DNA of 63,222 bases, the filler included, from Bonamia ostreae (taxonomy: Eukaryota): NCBI GenBank assembly GCA_040357525.1. It is 26 parts of 26 records of this genome, joined end to end, with 100 filler letters (N's around TTAATTAATTAA, not from the genome) between each part and the next. Parts side by side here need not be neighbours in the genome. Positions count along the whole stretch, not along the records: positions 53,648 to 55,968 come from JBDODL010000906.1; 25 more parts are not named here. One strand, given 5' to 3'. Position 1 is the stretch's first letter, and the number at the start of each line of letters is the position of its first letter. Positions 1,410-55,968 of the stretch are shown here, piece by piece. The notes beneath the pieces are model-generated. The model did not search any database, was not told the origin of the DNA, and worked only from the letters and a program-made list of their open reading frames with translations. The position numbers and the translations under genes are program-made.

Positions 1410-1490
1410 TATCCTAAATTTAATTATATAGTAAAACTATAAATTTTATTAGCTCACACGATTTATAGTGATTATATATAGTTGCATATA

Positions 1491-2319
1491 ATGTCGGTTC
1501 TCTCAAAAAAGATAAAAACGGCAAAAGATTTGGAAAAATTTAAAAAATCAGATATCAACAAAGATATCAAAAATTTCATCTCGGACATTTCTAAGCACTT
1601 AATCGATAAAGCTCAAATTAAAGAGTCCGAATATTCAAATATTTTAATGAATGTTCTAAATGACCTAAACAACTGGATCGACGAAATCCCTCCGATGAAG
1701 ATGGAAATGCGCTACGGCAACAAATCTTTTAGAAATTGGCACCAAAAATTAGAAAATGTTGAATTTTGAATTAATTTTAAAACATTTTGTTCTAACATGA
1801 CATTTAGGAATTTGATAATCTCTTTTCAAATTTTGCCTCGAAAAGTCATTTTTTGGAATTGAAAGGATATTTTAATGGTTCGTTCGGCAATCCGATAAGA
1901 TTGGATTATGGAACTGGCCACGAATTTTGCTTTTTTCTATTTTTACTTTGTTGCTACAGACTTAAAATTTTTTCGGAGGACGATTTTTCTTGTTTGGCTT
2001 TATCCATTTTTCCGTTGTTTTTAATTTGTTCGAGACTAAATTTTAAAATTGGGAAATGGTAAATTTAAGATATTTGGAGTTGGCAAGAAAATTACAGAAA
2101 GTGTATTCGTTGGAACCGGCGGGATCGAAAGGTGCTTGGGGGTTGGACGATTATCAGTTTTTGCCGTTTGTTTTTGGGGCGGCTCAATTAATCTGTTTTC
2201 CAAAATCAAATTTAGCCAAAAATAATGAAATTGTTCCGAACGATATAAACGATAAAGAGAAAATTCAAAAATATAAAAAGGAATATCTCTTCTTCTCTGC
2301 TGTTGATTTTATTAATTCT
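1491..2319 (+). CDS. PTPA: PP2A phosphotyrosyl phosphatase activator (PTPA/Rrd), 3' truncated
   Basis: Motifs RYGNKSFRNW, SFGNPIRLDYGTGHE, YSLEPAGSKGAWGLDDYQFLPF; GT-AG introns 1758-1807, 2017-2069 and probably 2195-2215. Confidence 0.95.
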
Positions 2320-2355
2320 GTTTTTTTAAATTGCTTTTGAACTGCAAAATTTGTT

Positions 2356-2455: not shown

Positions 2456-4808
2456 CACTAGCGGGGTTTGAACTCACGTCTTCCCGGTTACGAAGTGAAA
2501 AGATGCTCCATTAGTGTCAATTCATGTCACGTCCAAATAAACAAAGGCAGCTGTTTACTCGTAGATGTTGGAAAAATGTCATAAAATCGCTTATTTAAAA
2601 CAAGATGCGGGAATTCATATTTACTAGTCTATCGTAAATTCAATTTTTGTTTGCATCGTGCTCACTTTGAAAGTATAATTTTATAAAATAAAACGGAATA
2701 ATCAAAATGTATAAAATGCACGAAAATAATCAAAATTCTCGTTGTTAGATCGATAAACAAGCATAAGACTGGGATTAAACAATCACAGCTGCACGTACCG
2801 GATAGCGATACAGAGAAATGTATTATAAGACATCCTCCAGACAAGGTTATAGTTTATCAGATTGATATTTAAACAGCCATACGTGCCCTACAGATGCCAG
2901 TATTAAAGGTTCCATTCAGACTAACGTTTGTCACCTACCTATGGTATGAAAGAGTAGGAGGAGTCATGTACATCTCAGTTCAAGGTGACTCACGTGAGCG
3001 GTGTGACCTACAGGCCGTGTTGCTGTAGTTATTAAAGAAGTCATTGTTTTCCTATACGGTGCCTTAAACTATTGGTATAATTCTAGATTACGTTAATTTG
3101 TATACCCTTATAAACAATATTGCCCGTTAATCGTGGGGTCCCAACAAACATAAATGAACAAATATTGTGTGTTTGCTGCAATTGCTTTTACTATGCACTT
3201 TCAATGGTATCAGTTGGGAACGAATAAAACACTTAAATACTGCTCTTGCAAATAATATATCCTGCTGACAGCGGAAAAGATAAATTTACCTTTAACTTTA
3301 CAGCAAGTGATTATCATACATAATATGATGTAACTTAAGTTCAAGTAGAAATGATAGAATCATTACTTTTATTGGCACGAATATGGGATTGGGAAATTCC
3401 ACCGTGGGGACAATTACAAGGCTCCAGATTGTGGAGTCCTAGACAACGAATTTTGTTCCAGAGGTGAAATTATCCTATACCGCACGAGCACATAATGAAG
3501 GATGTGTAGGGTATCCGAGTCACACAGGTGACCCATTCAAATCTGCCCCCAGTCACCGGTCGGTGTCTATCGTTTGTCGTTCGTAAACTTTGGAACATTT
3601 CTTACTTCTAAAACCACTATCAAGTTCACAGCGGCTTTGAGTAAAAGGTGGACTAACGTGGTGAAATTTGTATCTCCAGATTACATTGGCCCTAATGCCT
3701 GGGGCCCAAAAATAAAATGCCCCCCCCCCCTCCCCCAAAATGGTGTAATTTCTAATGGTTTTGTTTACTGTGAGGTGTCTACATGTACATGACATTGTAT
3801 GCATTGTTCTGAAAGGCAAGGGTACATCTATAATGTACGCTTAAATAGCGAAAACGCATTGCTTAAAATCACATACTGAGATCATAACAATAGTAAGCAG
3901 ATAACCCTCTACTGAAATTCATGACCCCCTAGATCTACAATTAGGCTAGGGATTTATATTCTTAAAGTAAAAATATTTCATTTCTTTAAAATTCTTCCTC
4001 TTCTGACATGGAACCGAACAACCGAATACATAATGATAATAAACAAGGAGGTCTCTCTTCAAATTGACACCAGAGACTCTGGGCCAGGGCTGTGTGGGTA
4101 ATATAATAAAAAGGCATCACCATATATTTAATGAGCTTTTTCTTTACTGTTATCCAGTTAACACAGACACTGAGTGATCATAAGCTTGGAGGTTTCTGCC
4201 AAACATGTGAAATACATGGCTTCTGTGTTGGGGACTTAGCTGAACACCAAGCACCTTATCATAACCGCCACTGTCAAAGTTTGGTTGGTGGGTAATAACT
4301 TTCTAATAGAGGGACATAAAAAGTACCTCAATGCCTGAGGTTATTACAGTACTATAGTACCATAACAAATAAACGAGGTCAATGATGAGATGAAAACAGA
4401 ATCAGTATTTGTAATTCATTTGCTTTGAGGTACATGACCCAAGTAGATCATCAAATTTAATCGGTCTCTCGTATTATAACGTTCAGTAATAAACTCGTAG
4501 ACAATGAATAGAAATAGTTTTTTAAAACGTTTATGTGAGAACTATTCATAAAGTAAAAATAAAATCCTGTCAATACATTTAGGTTACACCAAATATTGAT
4601 ATGTAAGCAACAACAAATATTTATTTGTTCTTCCAAAGAGTAAACTATTTGTTTTTTCCAAAATGTAAACAAGAAGAAAATAAAGAAGTAAAAAATGAAA
4701 ATTGAAGAAAAAAAATATACATGAAACCGAAATACTATGCATAAAGAAAACTATAAAAATAAGGCATGTTTTAGAAATGCATATGCCCCACGTGAGGCAA
4801 TATTAAAA
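2456..4808. other. Gene-less contig, probable host/animal DNA
   Basis: No credible ORFs or micro-intron gene structure; composition differs from the protist contigs; B-box-like GGGTTTGAACTC at the start. Confidence 0.65.
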
Positions 4809-4908: not shown

Positions 4909-5160
4909 TTGTGTTTGCTGTAGTTTCTGCACTAATGGTGCGATCTGAATCAAAATTTATTACATTTCTTTGTTTTATTTTCAAAGTCCAAAGAGACTTT
5001 AGTTTTTGAGACAATTCGATGGCCTTATTTTGGTCGTAACCGATTTTTTCGAGGTCTTTTTGCGTTTTTTCTATAACGTCTTTTATTACAGTTTTGTACT
5101 ATTCTTTAATTTAATAACTATTCTTGTTGCTTCTTTCGAAGTGCTGTTTATTGAGCTCAT
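4909..5160 (-). CDS. GTF2A1: TFIIA large subunit (alpha/beta), N-terminal part
   Basis: Spliced MSSINSTSKEATRI|YKTVIKDVIEKTQKDLEKIGYDQNKAIELSQKLKSLWTLKIKQRN|IAPL resembles the Toa1 N-terminal helices (YxxVIxDVI...LKxLW); introns 5099-5118 (20 nt) and 4945-4963 (19 nt); absent from ORF track. Confidence 0.75.
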
Positions 5161-5288
5161 TGCGGATTGCTTTAAGCTTTAATTTATATTTTATGAATTC
5201 TCGATATAGTTTTGATATGAACATTTTTTCCGGAGATTAAAGAAAAATGGTTGAAAACTATTAAAAAAACTGTAAAAGCTCAAAATAT

Positions 5289-5563
5289 TTAATGTTTTGA
5301 GGAAATATATTCTGCTTCTGACGGCTTTTTGTAAAATATATGAAAACTTTTATCAAAGTGCGAAAGCTTAAATTAAATAATGAAACAAAAGTCCTATCGC
5401 GTCAATTAAAGTGTAAAAGCTTTTTTGAAGCTTTTCATAACAACTATCTCCGCCTCTAACGATCCGGCCTTTTATTATATTAAAAAGCTTAATATGTACC
5501 ATTCCGTAATCTCACTTCATTTGTTGTTTTTCTATTACGCAACTCGTCTGGATAATTAGACAT
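5289..5563 (-). CDS. Selenoprotein K/G-like small membrane protein (66 aa)
   Basis: GT-AG introns 5469-5499, 5367-5386 and 5325-5347 give a 201-nt CDS: MSNYPDELRNRKTTNEVRLRNGRIVRGGDSCYEKLQKSFYTLIDAIGLFFRTLIKPSEAEYISSKH; NGxIV and LFFxTLI motifs. Confidence 0.6.
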
Positions 5564-5661
5564 TATAAAAATTATCGACTTTTCTATAAAAAGAACAGAA
5601 ATTAATTATATATACAAAATATTTAACAATTTAAAGCTCTTGCTAAATTTTAGATTCCCAA

Positions 5662-5969
5662 ATGGTAATCAATTTATAAACCAATAGACCAAAAGAACGA
5701 AGAAAGTTGGAATAACAGGTAAATACGGCACTCGATACGGATCTTCCCTGAGAAAGCGCATCAAGAAAATCGAAATTTCACAACATCAAAAATACTGCTG
5801 CATTTTTTGCGGCAAGGTGGCCGTAAAGCGCTCCGCCGTTGGAATCTGGAAATGCAAACGGTGCAATAAAACAGTTGCGGGAGGCGCATATTCTTTTTCT
5901 ACTGAATCTGCGACGACCGTCAAAAACACTATTAGACGTCTTCGAGATCTAGCGAATATTAAAAACTAA
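5662..5969 (+). CDS. RPL37A: 60S ribosomal protein eL43 (L37a)
   Basis: ATG, 23-nt intron 5665-5687, then [23 protein letters not shown]...CIFCGK...GIWKCKRC...AGGAY; absent from ORF track. Confidence 0.98.
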
Positions 5970-6049
5970 TAAGTGCACTTTTGTAATATTGATTTTTGAA
6001 ATAAAATTTCGTAAACTTCAAAAATTTCGAAATGCAATTTTAAAATCAT

Positions 6050-7160
6050 TTATTGTGTTTTCTTGTTGTCTTTTTTGCGCTCTTTCTTTTCGTAATCACT
6101 ATCTTCATATTCGAGTTTAGCTGGAAATGTCATCGACTTTCTTAATCGAATTTGTGAAAATCGCAAAAATTTGTAATATCGTTTTATTTTTGGTTCTTGT
6201 AAATTTTGTAAAAAAATTAGCAAAAATAATATTTTTACAAAATTGCAAATAAAATCAGCAAAAATATGTAATAAAATTAACAAAAAAAAGCAAATTATTA
6301 TTTTAAAATGTTACCAAAAATCAGCAAAAGACAGAAAAAATAAAATAATCAAAAATATTATTTTAACAAAATTGCTAATAAAATCAGCAAAAAACAGAAA
6401 AAAAAACCAAAAATCAGCAAAAGACAGAAAAAATAAAATAATCAAAAATATTATTTTAACNNNNNNNNNNNNNNNNNNNNNNNNNNNNNNNNNNNNNNNN
6501 NNNNNNNNNNNNNNNNNNNNNNNNNNNNNNNNNNNNNNNNNNNNNNNNNNNNNNNNNNNNAAAATTGCTAATAAAATCAGCAAAAAACAGAAAAAAAAAC
6601 AACCAAAAATCAGCAAAAGATAGAAAAAAAATAAAATGGCAATAAAAAAATTGCCAAAATTGTAAAACAATAAAAATATTCAAATTGCTAAATTTAAACT
6701 TTTTTTATGCCCAAAATAATCTTTTAATTTACTATCGACAATTTTGACCAATTTTTCTTTATATTCGTTATCCAAAAACGGTTTATATTTCGCCGGAAGA
6801 TTTTTGTTGTTGTTTAATAACGCAATCAAATTAAGCATTTTTATATCGTTTAGCAATTTTCTCTTTAAAAATTTGCAATTTCGTAAAATCGGCAAAAAAT
6901 TACAAAACGTTCGTTACGACGCCATCGATAACAATTATCTCTTTTTGAGCAATGTACAAAGCCTCAATCATCTTGTTTTTCTTGATTTTGTTAACCATTT
7001 TTAATATTTGGACATAAAAAAGCAACAAATTTTTTTCGCCTAATTTTTCCAATTTTGTAATTGCGTCGTACGACTTATTGAACCTTTTCTTTCTTAAATT
7101 TTCTGTTATTTCGTTTCTTTCTTTTAACGTGTTTTTTGTTTTTTCTGGAACTTTAAAGAT
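6050..7160 (-). CDS. CTLH/CRA-domain protein (GID complex-like), partial
   Basis: LLLFYVQILKMVNKIKKNKMIEALYIAQKE...LIALL...YKPFLD...LVKIVDSKLKDYFG pattern; exon limits approximate. Confidence 0.5.
6230..6630. repeat. Intronic AT-rich tandem repeat with an internal N gap
   Basis: Recurring aaaatcagcaaaa(g/a)acagaaaaaa...ttattttaacaaaattgcta units. Confidence 0.8.
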
Positions 7161-7405
7161 TCAAAATTGGCTGTTTTGACAAAAAAAATTTCTGAACATT
7201 AAAGACAAAATGGATTTTTTTAATAAAAAAATCTGAAATATAAATCACAAAATCCGTAATTNNNNNNNNNNNNNNNNNNNNNNNNNNNNNNNNNNNNNNN
7301 NNNNNTTAATTAATTAANNNNNNNNNNNNNNNNNNNNNNNNNNNNNNNNNNNNNNNNNNNNAAAATTTTGAAACGTTTTAAATACAAAAAATTGTCGAAA
7401 ACAAA

Positions 7406-14705: not shown

Positions 14706-14975
14706 ACTATCGATACTTGTAATCCTTCCCGACAAACACAGTCTGTTTTAAAATGAATGAGCAGAAAACTCGCTTGTTACCACCTATCCCAACACTCGTC
14801 GGCGGACACAACACCAGCACATCCGTCTCTCCCTCTTTCAAATACGCATCATCACGTGTCATTGACTTGTACGCAATTCGTCCGTCTCTCTAACTGAAGG
14901 GCAGGATAGATCGCCCAAGACGCCCAGTTCCTTCCTAAAACGGCGCATGCTGAATCACCTTGCCGACAAATTCTA
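14706..14975 (+). CDS. Possible 3' end of a hypothetical gene
   Basis: Two intron-like segments (gtaatcc...cacag; gtccgtctctctaactgaag) join an open frame ending LADKF*; no homology recognised. Confidence 0.3.
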
Positions 14976-15177
14976 ATGCTGGGATGCGTTTAAAATTTAA
15001 AAACATTAAAGTCAGAGAGAGATATTCAACCCATAAAGCACTGAGTGCATGGAGTGGCCGAAGGGAAATTATCCGAAAAGCTTGTACGAAGAATGGTTCA
15101 ATAGTCGCTAACGGTTTTATGGTCAGCAAGGAAATCTAAATTATATTTTTATTATATAAATAAAGGCTAACTTGGAA

Positions 15178-15964
15178 ATGGCGACGAGTTTACTTTTCTA
15201 AATATCTGCATAAAAGAACTATCCTTCGAGAACACGGACGACATTGGAGTCTACGCCTTATTGAGCAACGCTTACTGCCTCGTCGGACAAGGCAGCTGCG
15301 AGAACTTCTACAGTGCGTTCGACGCGGAGCTGTCTTCGCACGTTCCTGTTATCCGGTGCACAATCGCGGGCATCAGAACGGTGGGGAGCCTGGCAGTCGG
15401 CAACAAGAACGGTCTCTTGCTGCCGAACTCGATCGCCGACTCGGAGCTGGCCCATCTCCGGAATTCTCTCCCCGATTCAGTCGTCGTTCGCCGCATCCCT
15501 GAGCGCTACAACGCGCTTGGCAACGTTGTCGTGAGCAACGACCACATTGCCCTGCTCCACCCCGGGGCCTCCAAGGAGACGGAGGAGACCATATCCGACA
15601 CACTCGGGGTCGAGGTGTTCCGCCAGTCGGTAGCAGGAAGTGAGCTGGTCGGATCCTACTGCGACTTGAGCAACCTGGGCGCCCTGATGCACCCGGCGAC
15701 TACGAGCGAGGAGCAAGAAGAACTACGCGCGCGCCTGCAAGTGCCGGTGGTCGCGGGGACGATAAATAGAGGGACCACCCCTATCTCGAGCGGACTGATA
15801 GTAAACGACTGGGATTTGAGACTAACTTTCAGCGCGCCTTCTGCGGCGGAAGCACCACCGCGACCGAAATGTGCACCGTCGAAGGCATTTTCAGACTTAC
15901 GGAAGGCGAGCAGGAAGAGGTTATCAAAAGCCTGAGAGGGGCTCTGATAGATGAATTGCTATAA
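15178..15964 (+). CDS. EIF6: Eukaryotic translation initiation factor 6
   Basis: MATK|LSFENTDDIGVY...GNKNGLLLP...VAGTINRG...VNDW|RAFCG...TTATE; introns 15188-15216 (GT-AG) and 15813-15832 (GA-AG). Confidence 0.97.
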
Positions 15965-16527
15965 ATGCTTTTACTCTTTTTATTACAATTCATCGATGGG
16001 CGTAAATTTTAAAAATTATTGATTCAGAACTGCAGTGCGGTAACTAGAAGAAATGAACGCGCATCCAATGCGAGTTTAGTTCCACTTTATCTAAAATTTT
16101 GAGTTTTATTCAACATATTTTCTTTCACTCGCAACGGCATCTTTTCGACGCATTCGCGATTTAAAGTCAAGAAATTTTTTATGGGATGCTCCAGGGGGAA
16201 ACCAGTTGAATAAATTCGACTTAATGATAATTTTTTTATTGAGATCTTCTTGTCCCTCTGAATATAACTCAAGAAGTTCATGTTAAATTGCCACCCAGAT
16301 AATTTGCCACCCAGACCACGAAAAATTACGGTAAAATGATTCAAAAGAAAAATCTTGACAAATAAATTCTGAATTTTTAGAAGTGAATCTGTGAAGCGTG
16401 TGCACGCAATGATTATAATATATGTAAACTTTTTATCTATAAAAATTAAAACATATTTTTTTTATTCAAATACGAAAAATATATGATTTCCTTATAAGAA
16501 GCAAACCGCGTGCATAATTTTTGAGGG

Positions 16528-16835
16528 ATGACAGAAAATTCTGATATCGAAAAAAAGGATAGACGAAGGATACAGAACAGAATAAACGCTAAGCGATTCA
16601 GGGATCGCCATAAACACCGGATGCACAATTTGTTGGATGAAAAACAGAAGCTCCCTGGCCAAATAATGATATTGCAGTCTCAACTTGAAAATCTACGCAA
16701 AATAAAACGATCGGAAATCGAATTGTTGCGAGAAAAAAACGAAGTAGAGTCGATTAGAATCAGAGACTCGTTTTTTTATTAGATTTTAGTTTCCAAAAGC
16801 TTATTATGCTAGGAAAGAAGTATGGAATTCGATAA
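16528..16835 (+). CDS. Small bZIP transcription factor
   Basis: RRRIQNRINAKRFRDR basic region plus heptad leucines; probable 20-nt intron 16770-16789. Confidence 0.8.
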
Positions 16836-17150
16836 ATGTCTTTATTATTGTTCTTTGTTCGAAAATTTGCAACTTCTTGCAAATTTAAACGTCTTTCATT
16901 ATTTCCAAGTTGCTTTATTTTGATTATTGCAAGTCATTTATTGTTCGACATGTTGATTATCTAAAGTTCAACTTGTTTGCAGACAAAAACTTTAAAGCAA
17001 GATTTTATCTAGATTTTCGGCTTGTTAATTTGTCAAAAATTCTTTACACANNNNNNNNNNNNNNNNNNNNNNNNNNNNNNNNNNNNNNNNNNNNTTAATT
17101 AATTAANNNNNNNNNNNNNNNNNNNNNNNNNNNNNNNNNNNNNNNNNNNN

Positions 17151-34223: not shown

Positions 34224-36555
34224 CTTTTTAAGTAATATTAACAAAATTTAGAATATTTTTAAAAAATGGAACAACTTGTCTCAATACGCTTCTTTAAACG
34301 TATTTTCTCCAGAATACTTTTGCCAAAACTTTGAAATGTCGCTCAAAAATTGCAAAGAAGTTCGATTATATAACAAAATCAACGAATGGATAATTTTCGG
34401 ACTATTAATGTCCTTGAAAGAATTAGCAAATCAAGAAGTGTACGAAATGTTTAAAAGTGCGTTTGCAAATTCAACTTATCAAATTATCGGTTATGGAATA
34501 GTTTTATTATTTCAAGCAAATTTTAATAAAAAAGAAAGTAAAAACTGCTGATATTTATGCGAAAATGGCAGATTACGCGAATGCATTGAAAATTTCGCAT
34601 TTTAAATCAAGCCTAAAGTTAATTATAAAATTTTGCCCAATTTTATTAAAAAGTGGTGAAAATATTTGGGAAAATTTTAATTTTTGAAATCCGATAAATT
34701 TTGTTATAAATCCAAAAATTATGAAAAGAGAAGAAATTGCAAGACCAATTACATTAAATCGTCTTATTGCAAAAATGACATTGATCGTCGACAATATCAA
34801 CAAAATGACAAATTTTTTGAACGAAGCGCCATTTAATCACGCTCGCTATTTCGAGATAACGTTGACAGCTTTGGAGACGTTGGGAATAGAGATAAAGATT
34901 TTAGCGGCGAATATTGACGCTGAAAACATGAAGGATGCTTTAAATTCTCTCGCGGCAAAAAAATTGTTCAAAGCGATTCATTGTCTTTATGTTTTGGCCA
35001 AATCTGCAAAAAAGTATTCAAAATGTTTCTTTTCATTTGATTATTTTTGCCATTTTGGCAAATTTTAATTGCTTTTGCCATTTTATTGTTTTGGCAAATT
35101 TTAGTTGTTTTGCCATTTTATTGTTTTGGCAAATTTCAATTGTTTTCGACATTTTTTGTTTTGGCAAATTTTAATTGTTTTCGACATTTTTTGTTTTGGC
35201 AAATTTTAATTGTTTTCGACATTTTATTGTTTTGGCAAATTTTAATTGTTTTTGCCATTTTAGTTGTTTTATCTGTTAAATTTTTAAAAACTGCGAAAAT
35301 NNNNNNNNNNNNNNNNNNNNNNNNNNNNNNNNNNNNNNNNNNNNNNNNNNNNNNNNNNNNNNNNNNNNNNNNNNNNNNNNNNNNNNNNNNNNNNNNNNNN
35401 TTGTTTTTGCCATTTTAGTTGTTTTATCTGTTAAATTTTTAAAAACTGCGAAAATTTGTTTAAAATTAATTAAAATATTACAAAATTAAAAAAAATGAAA
35501 TCCAAAAGTGATAAAAGAGCACTTTAAGCGAAAAATAAAAACTGAAAATGTCGCAAAAATAAGCGAACTGTTGCAATCTTTGAAAGAATTCAACTTTTAT
35601 AAAGAGAATCCAGAAAAATTGGACTGTGTCGATTCATTAATTTCATTACTGTCAAAAGGAAATATTTCATCAAACTTAAAAGTTCACAAAATTTTTATAA
35701 TTAGCAAATTAAAATTTGTCTGGAAAAATCTTCAACGATAAACAGTTTTGTGGTTAACCAAGAAATGCAAAACGAAGCGCTAAAATCCGGCTCATTTTCA
35801 ACAGAAATAAAACAAGGACATAAAACAATCCGAAATGTCTCGGCTCTTCTATTGACATCTATTCACGATGTACAGGAATATCTAAGTTACACAAAAAACG
35901 TTGAAAAAGTTGTCGACAGATTTTCGTCTATCGAAGACATCTGTTTTGATAGCGAGACCAAAAATGTTTTTAGCTAAATTTTAATTAGACGTTTATCAAG
36001 CTCTACAAAAGCAATCCTTATCTTTTCGAAGACGGCTTCGATTTTTTGGGTTGTTTTTCACATTCCATTCCAATTCCCAGAGAAGTGATGGTGAATTTTT
36101 AGCTTTTTGTCTAAATTTTACTAAATTTTGCAATAATTAATTTTTCGCAAATTTTGTCAATTTAAAAATTATCTTAAAATTTCGAAAAATTAAATTACAA
36201 AATTAACTAAAATTTAGGAATATAAAACTAAAACGCATTTGGAAATGTTAATCCAAATTATCGATAGAACAAAACAAGAATTCAGTTTGCACATTGAAGA
36301 CCAACTCAAATTCCAAAAAGAAAAAGATAAAACTGAATTAATAAAATTTGACAAAATGTAAATTTTTTATTTCTAATTTTAAGACAATTAAAATTTTTGC
36401 AAAAAATAATGTTAAAAAGATTGAAAAGCAGAGCAAACGTGGCGATAAATGCAATGAAGAACTTTGACAAAATCGAAAAAGTTAAAATAAACAGTCTCGA
36501 AATTTATCCAATAAACGTTTTTTTAAATTTAGCCAGAAGATCTTAAAAGATTACT
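34224..36555 (+). CDS. Internal fragment of a large helical hypothetical protein
   Basis: Successive + strand exons joined by GT-AG introns across the contig. Confidence 0.55.
35040..35280. repeat. Intronic minisatellite (~36-37 bp unit)
   Basis: catttt(a)ttgttttggcaaattttaattgtttt units; adjacent N gap with duplicated flank. Confidence 0.9.
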
Positions 36556-43946: not shown

Positions 43947-46273
43947 TTCTTTATAAATAGGAACCCGTACAGAGGAGGTAAACAAGTAATATAGTTACCA
44001 TCTTCCTAGTGAACTCTGACAAGCATCGCTCTAACAATTGAACGTTTATTTTCAAACTGTCAATCAAATACAAATGTATTAAAAGTCGCACAGAGGTTGC
44101 AAGGAAAAGAAGAAACGACCAGATTAACGTCTCTGTAGACGCTCTGTAGGAGGATCGCTGGCCAAATGTAAACTATCCTTTATGAATAAACTACCCTTAA
44201 ATTGGTCCATGATCCTTACCAAGAAATTCACAGTCTTCGAAAACAACAGATGATGAAACTTTTTATAAATTTTATTTAATCTTGAATACAGGAATAAAAT
44301 AACAAAAATACATGGGTGATAATTTTACGGAACACTTCTAGTATACCGGTTAACAAAAGCGGTTTAATATATACTGGCATATACACGATCGGTAAAATCG
44401 TTAAAAAGGTAAAAATAAAACAAGAAGAAAAAAAATCTCAAATGTGAGCCCAAATACGAATTCTTAGTGTAAAATGAAGTTAAAAAATTGCAGTTTTTGA
44501 TAAATCGAAATAGAAACAGAATGAAAAAAAACCCATACAGTTTATGTTCCAAAATCGATAGAATTTATTGTATAGGAATTTGTTTATGTGTGCGATAAAA
44601 ACAAAAACAAAAATCCCCCAAACTTTGGCTATTGATCTAAATTATAGTTTTTATTTTATTTTGATAATTTTTAAGGTATTAGATTTTATGTCATACTGTC
44701 ATTTANNNNNNNNNNTGCACTCATCTTCTTACCGAGGCAAGAGGAACATAACTGCTTATGCATAGTCGCGTGTTATAGAGGACCAGTATACTAGGAATTT
44801 TCCGAATTTACATAAAGTGAAACATTAATCAAGTCAATACATTCCATGATGTATGCAACTACATGTAGTCTGATTTTTGTGTCAATATCAATATTATAAG
44901 TTATTATCAATATACTATTTGGAATTTTTATGTTTATTTGTTTTACGTCCTTAGATAATGATTAACTTACACTGATATTGAAAATTCACCAGCTGTAATT
45001 GAAATACCATAAACTTAGGATCGTTGCAGTGAGAGTTCTTAATTGTGCCATGGGCGTCCTTTTTCAAGGCCTATCGGAAAATCGTGACTCTAACTTCCAA
45101 ATACAAAGCGTTTGGCGTTGACATCATCACTACTTATGCTTATATTTAAGGTTTTTCGCAACCGGTGTCGAAGTTAACACTCTAAGCACTAAGTTGCAAC
45201 AACCAGAGAGAAATGAAAATAATAACACCTCAAAATTTTATTCTTACGAAGAGAACATCCATGATATTCTTTGGTACATGTATACATCCAAGGGTAAATC
45301 AAGCGTATTCCATTTTTCTTTTGGTGATCGTTTCGTAACCGGAAAGTCGTCAGTTCGAACCCAGTTTATATCATGGCGATGCCAAATCTAAGACATAAAA
45401 TTTGAGAAGGTAGTGATTGTTCCATCGCCAAGTGTTCGTCATTTGGAAGTGAGAATCGTGACCTTTAAAACGGAGGTCAAATGTCGTAGCTGATTCGCTA
45501 AAGAACCCCACTGAAGTATGATAACATCTCAGTACGAGTAAAACATTGTTGACTGGACGTAAAACAAACAACATTATTTTCTTTAATACCTTTTCACTTC
45601 ATTCTTGTCCAATTTTGGATTTGAAAAATAGATATCTCACCTTTTTATATTTAGTTAAGAAAAAATGAAAATACATATATAAATCATGTATGGATGTGGA
45701 TAAATTATGAGTGATGTGTCAAAAATGAGACAAACATTCTACATCTAAATAAATTTAAATCATATCATATTCAAATAGCATAAACAACCGTTTAACTGCC
45801 CACGGAATAACTTTGTTCCAAATGACATATGGTAAAATTTTATTGTCCCATATTATGCAATGACCAAATATTACATTCTTACGAATCGTGTGCTTAATAC
45901 CGACATAAAAGGGCAAAGACAATGAGGATTAATCAAATTCATAATACAGTAAGATCAGAGTAATCACCCCCTATCATTTTGTCGACTGAAACTTTGACTT
46001 TACTTGTTTTACTTCTATGAAAATCAACCCCATATTGACCTTAATATAGCCCTGAGGTGAATCGCATAAGGAACATGACATCCCAACTTCAGAGATATGT
46101 CCAACATCATTTGGTAAATCATTGTCTTGTTCTATATTCTGCTATGATATATCCACCCCAGTATTGTAATTTTTACTTGGAGCAATGGATTGATTTGACA
46201 TATATCTCAGTAAACTCGAAATAAAGGACAAAACAGACTCTACCATACCTGTTTCATATTTAGTTATTTTATT
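43947..46273. other. Gene-less contig, probable host/animal DNA
   Basis: No coding structure. Confidence 0.65.
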
Positions 46274-48618: not shown

Positions 48619-48803
48619 GTTATTTCTTGAATTGTTGATTTCCATATTTAACTCGACAAAAACAACAATTTTTCGAAAACAACAAATTTCCTTTCATAGN
48701 NNNNNNNNNNNNNNNNNNNNNNNNNNNNNNNNNNNNNNNNNNNTTAATTAATTAANNNNNNNNNNNNNNNNNNNNNNNNNNNNNNNNNNNNNNNNNNNNT
48801 ACT

Positions 48804-49907
48804 TCACTTCCGATACTTAATAGCTTCGTTCGCTATCCACATGAAAAAGCTGATTTTCTTCACCGACTGCGTCGAAATCTCGCGATGGCGCAGCCCCATC
48901 TGCCAAAGCATCTCCAACAAGTTCACCGCGAAAACCGCCTTCCTGCTAAGCCGCAGCCCTTTCTCTTTCTCCAAAATCCGCTCGGCCGCCAACAGCGTCC
49001 GCCGGAAATACAAATTTCGGAAGCGAGTTTCCAAAAACGCTTCGTGCGGCATTTTCTCGCGCTGCTCTGCGCTCAGAACGTGCGCTTTGTTGAGACAAAA
49101 CATCGAATAGATCTTCTCTGCCCACCTTCTCTCCATCAGATCGGCGACATCGCCGTCCATCTGCAACTCGATTTCTAAGAAGACGCGCGCGGCCGTTTCG
49201 ACGGAGAACCTTTTCTCCGAGCGCGAGCAAACAGAGCGGAGACGCTTTGTCCCGGCCGCGTCCGCGCTGAAGTCGACGACTCTGCAGGGTTGGATGGCTT
49301 CCCAGCGCAGATCCTTCATGAACTTGCAAAAGAAGTGCTTTGCGTCCGGCGTCAATGGCCGGCGAAGCAGTGATTTGGAAACGAAGATTTCAAATTTGTC
49401 GCTCGAAGTCGATTTTTGCAGATTTTGGCTCGCTTTCAGCAGATTTTGGCTGTTTCCGACAAAATTTTTCAAACTTTTGGCTTTTTTGTCGATTTCCCGG
49501 TTGTTTTGAACAAAAATTTTGCTTTTCGCTGATTTTCTTAAAAAGGAACTTTGCCCTTTTTTCGAAGCGGTTTTGGTTGAAGTTTGACTGTTTTTGATTG
49601 TTTTTTTGGTTTTGTTTTGGCTTTTTGGTTTTACATGAATTTTTGATTTCTGTTCAAAAATTTTCTTATTCTGGAGTTGGCGACAAAAAGGATTTTCTAT
49701 TTTCTTGTGCGGACGGCCATTTTCACTCGAAAAAGCAGATTTTGTTTTTCTGTGAATATTTCCTTCTTTACTCGACAAATCCGCAGAACCGCCATTTAAA
49801 GTTTTTCGGCCGTTGTCGCGGTCTTTTCCGACCTTTTCTTCTGCCATTTTGAGTCTCATCACAGGATTTTGCATTTCGTAGAAGCTTCCAATCGAATGTC
49901 GCCACAA
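48804..49907 (-). CDS. Hypothetical protein (basic disordered N-terminus, helical C-terminus)
   Basis: 367-codon ORF; start probably ATG 49847 or an ATG just upstream. Confidence 0.65.
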   Translation of the reverse strand: MWRHSIGSFYEMQNPVMRLKMAEEKVGKDRDNGRKTLNGGSADLSSKEGNIHRKTKSAFSSENGRPHKKIENPFCRQLQNKKIFEQKSKIHVKPKSQNKTKKTIKNSQTSTKTASKKGQSSFLRKSAKSKIFVQNNREIDKKAKSLKNFVGNSQNLLKASQNLQKSTSSDKFEIFVSKSLLRRPLTPDAKHFFCKFMKDLRWEAIQPCRVVDFSADAAGTKRLRSVCSRSEKRFSVETAARVFLEIELQMDGDVADLMERRWAEKIYSMFCLNKAHVLSAEQREKMPHEAFLETRFRNLYFRRTLLAAERILEKEKGLRLSRKAVFAVNLLEMLWQMGLRHREISTQSVKKISFFMWIANEAIKYRK

Positions 49908-49964
49908 TTTTTACGTTTAGCAATTTACGTTTTGCTCAAATTTACAAAATATTTGGACAGTCGT

Positions 49965-50723
49965 TTATTCCCCGTTCTCGTTGGCTTTGTCGAGAGTTCT
50001 GCTTTCGGCCTCCGCCGAGCGCTCCTCGGCGGAGGACTGCTCGGCTGCCTCCTGCTGTTCAGCCACCTCCGTCGGCCGTTCTCCGTCTTCACCAAAGTCC
50101 TGCTGGCTCTCCGTCTGAGGATCCTTCTGCTCCTCCTCCGCGCCGGACCCGCTCATCGCCCTTTCTAGTTTCCCGACGCGTTTCTGGACTTCCTCGAGGA
50201 CGAAGTTGAGGCTGTCCACCTTCTTGTTGAGGTTCCCGACGAACTCCTGGAGGTTGAGGTCGGGCATCAGATAGTGGTGCGGGTAGTCCATTTTGATCAT
50301 CACGTGCTTGTTCTCGACAGGTGGTGGCGGCGGCGGAGGCGTTTCGATGGCCCCCTTCGCGTCGGCGAGGGAGAAGTTGTAGGGGTCGAAGTTCTGCTGC
50401 AACTTGTAGCGCGCGGCGGCTGCGGCCTTCTGCTCCTGGTCGACCGAGGCGCTCATCCGGGGACGCAGCACCTCCGACATTCTGCTGCTCTTGGGCTCGA
50501 AGGAGTCCGGCCGCAGGACGGAGGGGCTCTTGTCGTAGTTGGGCGGAGGAGGCGGCGTTTCGTGTACTTGGCTCTCCGCCTTTTGGTTTTCCGAGTCGTC
50601 GGGTTGGCCCATTTTTACAATCTTGTCTCCCGCCGGGTCTTCCGCCGAGATCCCGTGCAGCACTCGCATGCGTTTTCTCTTCCTTTCTGCAACTTTTAGT
50701 TACGTTGTGTTATTATTACCCAT
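49965..50723 (-). CDS. Proline-rich / coiled-coil hypothetical protein
   Basis: ATGG, 27-nt intron 50693-50719, then a long GC-rich exon. Confidence 0.7.
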
Positions 50724-50833
50724 GAAGCCCTGATTATTATTTAGTTGAAAGCTAATTTGCGAATTTTATATAATGATTTGTTAAGCTGAACGGAAGTTTA
50801 TTATATGAATCGCTATAAGCAGATTTTTGTTGT

Positions 50834-51054
50834 TTAAGATTTTAAGTCGATTAAATTTTGGAACAAACTTCTAATCGCGTCTGGAATGGCCTTGCAATGT
50901 TTTTTGTGCGATATTAGTTGGAACTCTGAAAAGGCTCTAAATGCGCAGAACTCGCATCGGAAGTAGTCCTTGTTGTGTGTCAAACAATGTCTGTCTCTGC
51001 CTTGTTTCGAGCAGAACGTCTTTGGACAGTGAGTACAAAAGAACGGCCTTTCTC
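50834..51054 (-). CDS. C2H2 zinc-finger protein, last exon
   Basis: GERPFFCTHCPKTFCSKQGRDRHCLTH...FRCEFC...LISHKKHC; absent from ORF track. Confidence 0.85.
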
Positions 51055-51223
51055 CTTTATTTTATTGTTTTGTTGCTTTGCCAAAACGGAGATTTTTTGT
51101 TTTAGAATATTTTAACAATTTTTNNNNNNNNNNNNNNNNNNNNNNNNNNNNNNNNNNNNNNNNNNNNTTAATTAATTAANNNNNNNNNNNNNNNNNNNNN
51201 NNNNNNNNNNNNNNNNNNNNNNN

Positions 51224-52035: not shown

Positions 52036-52353
52036 GGACTTCATAAAATTTTTAAAATGGATTTAAAAATGAACAAAATATTATCAAAAATCAATATAAA
52101 AAACGATATTAATTTTACGTCAAAAATAATTGAAATGGTCATCAAAACATTGATAAAATAATTGGTAACTCAGATTTTACAAATATTCTTAAAGTTTAAT
52201 AAAATCTTTTTTATTATAGTTTTCAGGTTTGTGTTGAGAATACATCTTAATAAGTTTATTTTTTTCAATTTTTCTTATATCGGCAGTAGCTTAACAATCC
52301 AAATTTATCCAAATATCTCTGAATTCAACAAACTGAAAAACTTAAGCTTAAAA

Positions 52354-53387
52354 ATGTCGGATTCGTTAAAAAAGGAGTTTACCTGTGACATGTGCAAAAA
52401 GCCCTCTACTTCTGCGAAGATTTGCCGTTGCAAAATGGCGATCTATTGCGATGAAGAATGCCAAGCGAAGCATTGGGACAAACATAAAAAAGAGTGCGAA
52501 AAATTCAGACATCTTTTCAACAAAAATTCAGACATCTCTTCCGATTCGTCCGATTTTGCAGATTTTGAAATACCGCGCGACACAAAAACTGATTTTGACG
52601 AATTGGACATTTTCGAATATTTTGAAAATTCGCAAATCGACGATTTTTGCGATTTCGAGACAGCGCAAACCCCGAAAATCTCCAACAACGAAAAAGATAT
52701 CGAAAAGCCGAAAACCCAAAAAAGTCCAGAAAACAACAATTTGTCTGTGATCGACGAATTCGAAGATTACGAAAAAAAATCAAATTTGGACGCCGAAAAC
52801 AGATTCGTTCTCAACTTAAGCGATTTCAACGAATACAATTTCACGGAAGGAATCAAGAAACTGCTCCTCAAATTCAAATTCGACGAAAGCAAGTTAATTC
52901 CGTTCCCAAAAATGCGCGACAGTTGGGAAATCAAAAATCTCGACGTCATGCCACCAGACGGGACGTTCATGTTATTTGAAAGGAGTTCGCTCAAGATCGA
53001 TAACTTTTTGTCTGTGACTTTTTACGCCGATTTTCTGCCTGCAAAATGTGCCGTGCGAGAAGCGCATTTCCAAACTTTGAGGGCCAAGAAAAGCGATCGG
53101 AGCGCGTACGAACATTTTTACAGACGAGAAGAAAAATTGAGAAGAAGAGAAAGAAAAATGAGCCGATTTTACAGCGAAGCGATATCGCAATTTTTGCGTA
53201 ACGGGATCAAAGTAATCAATTCGTTCAGATCGGACGTTAATGGCATCTACAGATTCGCTGGTCACAGCAACTCTCAAATCAAGAACAACTCTTGTTACCT
53301 CGTCAAAGCTCCTTCTGCCGAAATTCATCAAACGCTGCACAGCATCGGCAATTTTGACGAGATCGATGATTTGGTCAAATTGGTCAA
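52354..53387 (+). CDS. MYND zinc finger fused to a cellular (RNAi-type) RNA-dependent RNA polymerase, 3' truncated
   Basis: CDMC...CRCKMAIYCDEECQAKHWDKHKKEC, then in the same frame FLSVTF...LRNGI...YRFAGHSNSQIKNNSCYL...IGNFDEIDDLVKLVK and a GT donor at 53388. Confidence 0.8.
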
Positions 53388-53759
53388 GTTTTTGCGTTTT
53401 CGTAAAAAATTTGCTCTGTTACATATGTCGATTAGAAATGTTCACGTCATTTGTAATTTCGTTTATCAATGCAAAAAATCCGAACAAGCTAAATAATTTG
53501 AAATGGTTCTGAAACATTAGCAGCTTCCAATAAATCTTATCTAGAAANNNNNNNNNNNNNNNNNNNNNNNNNNNNNNNNNNNNNNNNNNNNTTAATTAAT
53601 TAANNNNNNNNNNNNNNNNNNNNNNNNNNNNNNNNNNNNNNNNNNNNGAATTTATATTAAATATTAATTATACAAAGTAATAAATGAAAAATATTAAAAA
53701 ACATTTATGAGAGATTCTATTATTATTAAATTCATTATAAAATTTGTATTAAAAGGCTT

Positions 53760-55968
53760 TTATTTATCATTTACAAAAATTTTCTTGTTGATTAAAATCG
53801 TTTTCTTATGTAATTCTATCTGTAACTTTTAAAACCATATAAATGTTCATATAGAGCTTCGTAGCCAAGAATATTTTTTTTGAGAAGCGATAATCCTTCT
53901 ACAAGTACATTCTTAAAATTATGTTAAAACTTGTTGATCATAAATGCATTGAATAAACATCTGTGTGTTGTTAACTTCTTCGGGATACAAATCTAAGTAT
54001 ATAGGCTTTTTAACGAAAAATTCGTCAATATATAGTTTAGTTCCCCCACTAACTGCTGCATCAATTATACCTAAATTTAATGAATAATAAACCCTGAAGA
54101 TTTAGAACCAATATTTTTAAATCCGATTTAATATCTGAACTTTTTATTACTTTAAACATTATATTCTTTATTTTTTTCGTTTTTGAATTTATAGCTTCAA
54201 TAGCTGCTGATATCGGAGAAACCATTTCTGTCCATTTCTTTATTATTTTTGATTTTCTATGAACACATGGACATTTGTGATTAGATTGTAAATATATTTT
54301 TTTTGTCCATAAAGTTTTTAATGATTTTTTTTCTCCTTTTTGACAAGGAACAGTATAATAAAATATGTCAATGTTATTATTTTGCTCATATTCTTTTTTG
54401 TTATTCGTTAAATCCAAATTGCTTTTTTTCTCCGGCAAAGTGAGTGTCGTTATATTTATATGTGTGGTGTTAAGGATATTCCAAATTTATAAATATAATA
54501 ATAAACTGATAATATAAGGATATATTTTTTTTCTGGGTTTTCCCCATCTTTAATTGTCCCAAATATTGAACCGGTATAATGACCTAATAACCTATTTATG
54601 AACGAATTTAATTGTTCCAAATGTCTTGATCGATATACCCACTCATTTAACTAAAATTTTAAACTTAATTACCTTCAATTCATCATCAAAATTTCCGGTA
54701 AAAACAACACGATAATAGTATGGATAAAATCTTGTTTCCGAATTTGACATGTTCACATAAAAGCCTGCTTTAATATTTAATATTTTAGCCACTTTTTCAA
54801 AATTATGAGCTTCGTTTAGATATAATTTTTCTAATTGCGAGCAAACATATACACATCTTTCCCCTATAAAAATTATTTAATGAACAATCTTTTGCGTTTG
54901 TAAAATACTGAATGCATTTTTTATAAAGCTTTGTTTTCTATTTATATTTTATATATTACTTTTTTGTTCAAATCATTTTTTATCGACATTTGGTCATCAA
55001 TCATTTTTATGTAGTTTAGCTGAGCAATTCCTGCTTCTGACCAATTATTATATTTCAAATGCAAAGATATAAAATTACTATAGTATGTGAAGTATACTTT
55101 TTTATCCAAATCTTTTTTATCCTCCAGTATTTTCTTTTTATTCATAAATGAAAACCAATAAATTTAAAAATGTTTCAATTTGTGAGTATTCGTTTCCTTC
55201 GTTATTTATATTTTCGGTGTTCTTAAGTTTATTAACATATCTTTTTATCTGAAAATATTTAAATTAACTAATTTTGTTCTTTTGATTAGATTTTTGGCTG
55301 CTAATTTAAATTCGCCATCATCTTCATTCCTAAGCTTTTCTTGCACTCTTAACGTTGTTTAATTAAACATTTCGATGATTCGACCAATGACATCATAATC
55401 ATTATAATTTGTTTGTATTTGCAAACAATTAAAAGTTTCATTTTCAATTTTAGTCATTTTTCCATACAAATTATCTTAAATTAAAATTTGAAACATTCTG
55501 ATTTCATAATTTTATAGTATAATTTCGATCCAAATTTTTCTGTAAACGAGTCCTCGAACTGTGTTGACAGAATTTTAGATAGAAAAAATTCCATAAAATC
55601 CAATATCTTGTCGTCCAACAATTCGAATACTAAAAATATGGATTCAACGAATTTAGTTTTATCCATATCAACACTACAAAATTATTATTTTAAACTTATT
55701 TTGAATGTATTCCATTTTGGTTTTGGATTCTGATTCTTCAAAGATCTGATCAGAAACCAGTAGAGTATATAATTCTAGATATTTTCTAACAGAATTTTGT
55801 ATGTACATAGGCTATAATTAATTAAAATTAAACTTTGATTAATTGTTTTAAAATTTCTATTGAATTAGTTAGAAGTTTAGAGAGACAATTTACTCTAACA
55901 ACCTTTATAGATATCCAGCTCTATCAATCAATTTAAAAACTTTATCAAAAATTTCTTTTTTGCAATTA
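53760..55968 (-). CDS. DOCK-family GEF, C-terminal part (DHR-2)
   Basis: RFYPYYYRVVFTG, EWVYR, SPISAAIEAI, LQG|IIDAAVSGGTKLY; about 10 introns of 19-22 nt plus one U12 intron. Confidence 0.92.
54462..54523 (-). other. U12-type AT-AC intron (62 nt)
   Basis: 5' ATATCCTT, branch site TCCTTAAC, 3' CAC; removal gives ...NPEKK-Y-INITTL. Confidence 0.9.

Follow-up and report, generated by a model that had tools for sequence, protein, structure and literature searches.

A candidate U12-type AT-AC intron in a DOCK gene of Bonamia ostreae, a parasite of oysters

The DNA examined here (the window) is a stretch of 63,222 bases made up of 26 unlinked pieces of the genome assembly of Bonamia ostreae, a haplosporidian (Ascetosporea, Rhizaria) that is a parasite of the flat oyster. 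One of these pieces, at 53648-55968 (2321 bases, 24% G+C), carries part of a gene of the DOCK family of Rho guanine nucleotide exchange factors, and within this gene there is a 62-nt element that, to judge from its sequence and its coding context, is very likely a U12-type AT-AC intron. The other 12 introns recognised in the gene are GT-AG introns of 19-22 nt. The coordinates of all of these features are given in Table 1.

The candidate AT-AC intron and its coding context

Three-frame translation of the minus strand of the DOCK piece gives a series of short open frames that resemble the DHR-2 region of DOCK proteins, with Pfam matches to DHR-2_Lobe_B (E 1.6e-7) and, weakly, to DHR-2 Lobe_A (E 0.0099). 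When the 12 GT-AG introns and the 62-nt element are excised by script from this 24% G+C DNA, 611 stop-free codons are obtained. When the 62-nt element is retained, an in-frame stop is reached after 22 further codons. Its excision joins T (54524) to AT (54461-54460) as a Tyr codon, and the I-N-I-T-T-L-T-L-P that follows aligns with the conserved DOCK sequence Y-I-x-I-T-x-[VL]-x-P in 21 homologue regions. An exhaustive search of representative proteins with the downstream exon as query returned 38 proteins, with a best identity of 39% and none below E 1e-10, and 37 of the 38 are matched by the spliced DOCK protein at E<=1e-3. The best homologue is a protein of 1801 residues (E 1e-57), to which residues 7-605 of the query are aligned without a break at the junction. 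The claim of the initial annotation that excision restores both the frame and the DOCK motif is thus borne out by the open codons, by this alignment and by the profile score given below.

Membership of the DOCK family is indicated by the DHR-2 catalytic domain, of which lobes A, B and C are present. Solved structures that match the downstream exon are those of DOCK10 (E 0.002), DOCK5, DOCK9, DOCK2, DOCK8, and DOCK7, with E values of 0.002-0.05 for DOCK10, DOCK5, DOCK9, and DOCK2, and no DOCK subfamily stands out clearly as that of the predicted Bonamia protein. The DHR-1 domain of DOCK proteins lies upstream of DHR-2, and the contig ends within the gene. No close relatives of the DOCK locus were found among the contigs of metagenomes or of prokaryote genomes, nor in the homologous-protein search.

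The signals of the 62-nt element are those of the minor-spliceosome consensus at the donor, the branch site and both termini. It starts with ATATCCTT, has TCCTTAAC 7 nt before its 3' end, and ends in CAC, which can be read directly from the sequence and which agrees with the initial annotation; the termini are therefore AT...AC. The 7 nt after TCCTTAAC are ACCACAC and there is no polypyrimidine tract. All of the sequence features by which a U12-type intron is recognised are found together here: a donor matching [AG]TATCCTT at the first base, TCCTTAAC near the 3' splice site, AT-AC ends, and a location from which removal is required by the coding sequence. Phase 0 is under-represented among minor introns (PMC10639083), and the phase of the 62-nt element, phase 1, is counted as further support for its being of the U12 type. 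Two DNA runs carry the identical unspliced sequence through the intron, with 0 differences, and it is therefore not an assembly slip.

The 12 GT-AG introns of the gene have a mean length of 21.2 nt (22 nt in seven cases, 20 nt in three, and 21 nt and 19 nt in one each), and their donors begin with GTT in 10 and GTA in 2. The 62-nt element is about three times longer, as had been noted initially, where the neighbouring introns of the comparison are those of the same contig only, since the 26 pieces are unlinked.

Neither of the two motifs is enriched singly in the window. There are 5 matches to RTATCCTT for 3.48 +/- 1.63 expected, a number that is reached in 28 of 100 shuffles, and 1 match to TCCTTAAC for 1.66 expected. 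Donor, branch motif, and AC are found together, in this order and suitably spaced, once in the window. Among 20,000 first-order Markov contigs of equal length the donor occurs in 881 and the branch motif in 309, while only 2 have both, with the branch motif 10-200 nt after the donor, which would imply approximately one chance pair per 12-Mb genome. The joint chance of finding both motifs at the required intron is about 1.4e-7, and it is because of this coding context that the motif match is significant. One of the 4 other RTATCCTT matches is the second copy within the intron (Table 1). The three at 1863, 16566, and 22175 look like chance occurrences, because they have no branch motif and are antisense to coding open reading frames (ORFs). 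Elsewhere in the window a loosely U12-like arrangement of ATATCCTG...CCTTTAAC...CAG, with a TTTACAG end, at 3257-3303 (+) has no surrounding coding frame and was rejected as chance.

The steps by which the intron would be removed can be proposed from what is established about U12-dependent splicing. The U11/U12 di-snRNP (small nuclear ribonucleoprotein) would bind the donor ATATCCTT, through U11, and the branch site TCCTTAAC, through U12, jointly. The U4atac/U6atac.U5 particle would then enter, with U11 at the donor exchanged for U6atac, and the donor would be attacked by an intron adenosine that precedes the 3' end by 9-10 nt. Ligation of the exons at the CAC acceptor would create the T|AT Tyr codon and restore the frame of DHR-2 lobe B.

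The contigs of two DNA runs differ from the window at 7 sites within approximately 80 bases immediately 3' of the DOCK stop codon (53681-53800), and at one coding site only (54272), such that isolate-level variation seems to be concentrated in the 3' flank of the gene.

Junction choice and alternative explanations

In a survey of the junctions possible near the element there were 1533 frame-keeping, stop-free donor/acceptor pairs, with homology scores that span 276.0-303.5 bits. By type, 36 of these are AT-AC, none is GC-AG, and one is GT-AG. This single GT-AG pair would define a U2-type intron of 77 nt, removed in place of the 62-nt element, with the U12-like motifs there by coincidence. It leaves the frame open, and its donor, GTTTAT, resembles those of the local micro-introns. 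Its removal would take away the conserved I-T-x-L-x-P, its acceptor, GGAG, has a G at -3 that is seen in 0 of the 12 local introns, and its length is as atypical as that of the 62-nt element. It would also leave two perfect 8-nt U12 motifs unaccounted for (approximately 1e-7). Against a profile built from the 21 homologue regions only, the AT-AC product scores 295.3 bits and the 77-nt form 279.6, which is 15.7 bits lower and gives it rank 1068 of 1533; the retained form, which is truncated, scores 149.3. Excision of the 77-nt intron is accordingly considered improbable.

The first 21 nt of the 62-nt element (54503-54524, -) read Y-I-L-I-L-S-V in the upstream frame, which resembles Y-I-x-I-T-x-[VL], and it is at this mimic that the retained form is placed in the profile alignment. 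It is probably a coincidence of AT-rich sequence, yet it blurs junction calls that are based on homology.

A second possibility is that this copy of the gene is broken or unspliced, the 62 nt being a pseudogene insertion or a segment that cannot be removed, with the protein ending at the in-frame stop. Read-through does meet a stop 22 codons on, and the removal of the element is predicted from the DNA. A dead gene would not be expected to have approximately 200 open codons downstream, in 24% G+C DNA, that encode conserved DHR-2 lobes B and C. All 12 of the other introns have clean GT-AG ends. This explanation is therefore regarded as very unlikely.

There are several points that weigh against the assignment of the 62-nt element as a U12-type AT-AC intron. 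All 36 of the AT-AC pairs keep the frame, and the 62-nt pair ranks 367 of 1533 by homology, which does not fix the exact junction. The exact ends rest on the match to the splice signals, because homology alone cannot determine the junction. The intron is known here from its DNA, from which the use of these exact sites is presumed, and it is the single such candidate among the 26 contigs. Two runs labelled as RNA, one of them with a query mark (share 0.58) and the other from a library labelled mollusc metagenome (share 0.06), gave no contig. The branch adenosine precedes the 3' splice site by 9-10 nt, which is below the optimum of 11-13 nt for the U12 branch-to-acceptor distance (PMC3584512), while being inside the range of 9-12 nt in Physarum (bioRxiv 10.1101/2020.10.12.336362). 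None of U11, U12, U4atac, and U6atac was found in the 63-kb window by Rfam, whether the gathering threshold or a cutoff of E<=5 was applied, and Pfam identified no minor-spliceosome-specific family in the 101 ORFs scanned, out of 172 of at least 70 residues. This absence of the machinery means little, because only 60 kb are covered. In a 2024 survey, Rhizaria are reported with minor-like introns but with no minor-spliceosome components (PMC11347168). With these points considered, the U12-type AT-AC intron predicted from the sequence is very likely genuine.

The result of that survey, in which no minor small nuclear RNAs (snRNAs) were detected in Rhizaria and in which other lineages show minor-like introns without detectable snRNAs, would also be consistent with a relic. 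In this case the minor spliceosome has been lost, the motifs are left over from it, and the major spliceosome, or some other route, takes out the intron at these sites or at equivalent ones. The related mikrocytids do have highly reduced spliceosomes (PMC10245619). That two perfect 8-nt motifs are present in a fast-evolving AT-rich genome argues instead for ongoing selection, and the donor ATATCC is unlike the GTT and GTA of the local U2-type introns. Introns with AT-AC ends and the U12 consensus are not known to be substrates of the major spliceosome. Loss of the minor spliceosome with relic motifs is judged to be a very improbable explanation.

If the DOCK contig came from another eukaryote in the sample, it would have no bearing on Rhizaria. 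The assembly is derived from infected oyster tissue, for which decontamination was required (PMC11069148). The match to a B. ostreae protein, eIF6, lies on a different piece, and the DOCK gene has no match among annotated proteins beyond the best identity of 39%. The style of its introns is like that of the annotated B. ostreae eIF6 intron (GTTTA donor, AAG-type acceptor, 29 nt). Introns of 19-22 nt are not known as a feature of oysters. Base composition does not settle the origin of the contig, because its 24% G+C is lower than that of most of the 26 pieces (22.6-48.1%) and of the published assembly (33.3%; PMC11069148). A foreign origin of the contig seems highly unlikely.

A possible minor spliceosome in Bonamia, and minor introns in other lineages

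From this one intron we infer that B. ostreae would have a working minor spliceosome. It had been claimed that this compact protist retains the minor spliceosome; the compactness of the organism stands, while the retention follows by inference from a single intron. It had been further claimed that U12 introns resist miniaturisation. The contrast of 62 nt with approximately 21 nt is found here, but there is only the one case and longer GT-AG introns seem to exist in the window (29 nt and a candidate of 53-56 nt, see below), which makes the claim a weak one. On balance it is somewhat favoured that B. ostreae keeps a working minor spliceosome, which would be the first documented in Rhizaria, that its U12 introns have escaped the shrinkage to approximately 21 nt, and that the position of this intron may be ancestral in DOCK genes.

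As had been stated initially, animal DOCK genes carry U12 introns, with one minor intron in each of the mouse and human genes DOCK1-5 according to the supplement of the Minor Intron Database (PMC6717393). Their donor is TATCCTT and their branch site is of the CCTT[AGC]AC type, in the same gene family as the Bonamia intron. They differ from it in being of the GT-AG subtype, with exon AGT followed by GTATCC, and in being longer (121 nt in mouse Dock1, 1250 nt in Dock3). The comparison is of splice-site strings and lengths, and the Bonamia protein is not clearly DOCK-A/B.

Blastocystis sp. ST1 is likewise a compact parasitic protist of the SAR group (Stramenopila, Alveolata, and Rhizaria) with short introns (PMC5608401; PMC10639083). 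Its minor introns are AT-AC in 196 of 253 cases and have a median length of 39 bp, which is longer than its major introns. The 62 nt of the Bonamia intron is therefore short, but no record. Blastocystis differs in having hundreds of minor introns, together with all four of the minor snRNAs and seven of the specific proteins, where Bonamia has one candidate intron, and in belonging to the Stramenopila rather than the Rhizaria. Donors of ATATCCTT are also found in Physarum polycephalum, in addition to the similar branch distance noted above. Physarum has thousands of such introns, with a divergent TTTGA branch motif, while in Bonamia the classic TCCTTAAC is intact (bioRxiv 10.1101/2020.10.12.336362).

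Closer in lineage are the mikrocytids, ascetosporean parasites that also have extremely short introns, of 16-17 nt (PMC10245619) against 19-22 nt in the Bonamia gene. Their spliceosome is highly reduced, whereas B. ostreae is reported to have 'canonical introns' (PMC10245619; PMC11069148). There is no mention of U12 in the text of the B. ostreae genome paper or in 4 supplementary files (PMC11069148), nor of U12 or 'minor splic' in the text of the mikrocytid paper (PMC10245619), and neither U6atac nor U4atac is named in the literature on rhizarian taxa among the matches listed. Ciliates are described as being without minor snRNAs (PMC13685798), and Myxozoa are counted among the animal lineages from which the minor system has been lost (PMC10639083). 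Introns of 22-27 nt are known in dicyemids and in myxobolid myxozoans, both of which are animals (PMC13644364, PMC6543705); an origin of the window from either is rejected on the 100% identity of its eIF6 to that of B. ostreae.

The minor spliceosome was already present in the last eukaryotic common ancestor and has since disappeared repeatedly, so that its known distribution across the eukaryotes is still patchy. A consensus AT-AC intron in B. ostreae would, if true, place minor splicing in the supergroup Rhizaria. This would extend a known kind of intron to a new lineage and would not amount to a new kind of element, and it would provide a natural case in which to consider the minimal length of a U12-type intron beside U2-type introns of approximately 21 nt. 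In practical terms, it is a warning that genes rich in micro-introns and non-GT-AG introns are missed in annotating B. ostreae, an oyster pathogen of economic importance.

Feature coordinates and other genes in the window

Table 1. Coordinates in the window of the partial DOCK gene of B. ostreae, its introns, and the signals and alternative junction discussed in the text.
Feature	Positions	Strand	Remarks
Partial DOCK coding region	53816..55967	-	TAG stop at 53818-53816; 5' end truncated by contig edge
GT-AG micro-intron, 20 nt	55921..55940	-	
GT-AG micro-intron, 22 nt	55812..55833	-	
GT-AG micro-intron, 22 nt	55674..55695	-	
GT-AG micro-intron, 20 nt	55475..55494	-	
GT-AG micro-intron, 21 nt	55348..55368	-	
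GT-AG micro-intron, 20 nt	55249..55268	-	
GT-AG micro-intron, 22 nt	55134..55155	-	
GT-AG micro-intron, 22 nt	54938..54959	-	
GT-AG micro-intron, 22 nt	54864..54885	-	
GT-AG micro-intron, 22 nt	54651..54672	-	Next upstream of the 62-nt element
Upstream exon, 127 nt	54524..54650	-	Lies between the A and B lobes of DHR-2; its final T opens the split Tyr codon
Candidate U12-type AT-AC intron, 62 nt, phase 1	54462..54523	-	On excision, two reading frames of a single DOCK gene are joined
5' splice site ATATCCTT	54516..54523	-	Exact U12-type consensus
Second ATATCCTT copy, intronic	54472..54479	-	Overlaps branch motif; use as donor (18-nt intron) would lead to a stop
Branch-site motif TCCTTAAC	54469..54476	-	Adenosines 54471 (-10) and 54470 (-9), counted from the 3' splice site
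CAC acceptor	54462..54464	-	Last AC in the run CACCACAC; no other AC of the run keeps the frame
Alternative GT-AG intron, 77 nt, phase 0	54430..54506	-	Acceptor GGAG; sole frame-keeping GT-AG alternative
Downstream exon, 369 nt	54093..54461	-	DHR-2 lobe B, opens I-N-I-T-T-L-T-L-P; Pfam DHR-2_Lobe_B E 1.6e-7
GT-AG micro-intron, 22 nt	54071..54092	-	Next downstream of the 62-nt element
GT-AG micro-intron, 19 nt	53912..53930	-	

The 26 pieces are 2315-2355 bases long and are arranged in order of descending length, with spacers of N44-TTAATTAATTAA-N44 between them (for example 53548-53647). Within pieces there are further runs of N at 6461-6560 and 35301-35400 (100 N each) and at 44706-44715 (10 N). 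Because the window is a concatenation of separate contigs, there is no physical linkage between a feature in one piece and those in another. The published assembly has 9705 scaffolds with an N50 of 1417 bp, and its annotation by funannotate gives a mean of 2 introns per mRNA (PMC11069148).

Two other genes in the window seem to have GT-AG introns longer than those of the DOCK gene. The eIF6 ORF (15171-15932, 254 residues, in the piece at 14706-17050) has 100% identity over 94% of its length to the 242-residue eIF6 of B. ostreae, and requires a 29-nt GT-AG intron at 15188-15216 (GTTTAC...AAAAG) for the first four residues of that protein. The G+C content of this ORF is 57.6%, with 32-42% in its flanks. 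The PTPA gene at 1482-2337 (+) has at least 3 exons, matching Pfam profile positions 2-89, 105-165, and 160-239. From the continuity of the profile, the best fit for its second junction is a candidate GT-AG intron of 53 or 56 nt (from 2017 or 2014 to 2069). On account of this candidate, U2-type introns of more than 50 nt seem to be present beside those of 19-29 nt.

For the RPL37a ORF at 5688-5966 (in the piece at 4909-7261) there was no match above 77% identity in the protein collection, which indicates that the annotation of B. ostreae in that collection is incomplete. Genes that are rich in micro-introns may be under-annotated in the B. ostreae assembly, the DOCK gene having 13 introns in 2.3 kb.

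The piece at 48800-51123 is uneven in G+C content, with three parts of 45.9%, 56.9%, and 34.5%, and has long, overlapping ORFs on both strands. These include a proline-rich ORF of 244 residues (49968-50699, -) and a C2H2-like ORF (50837-51061, -), with no Pfam match at E<=0.001. This piece could be host or other foreign DNA. At 52162-53493 (+), an ORF of 444 residues contains a MYND zinc finger (E 3.7e-8) and the beginning of the domain of eukaryotic RNA-dependent RNA polymerases (E 2.5e-6), which hints at an RNA-dependent RNA polymerase of the RNA interference type in B. ostreae.

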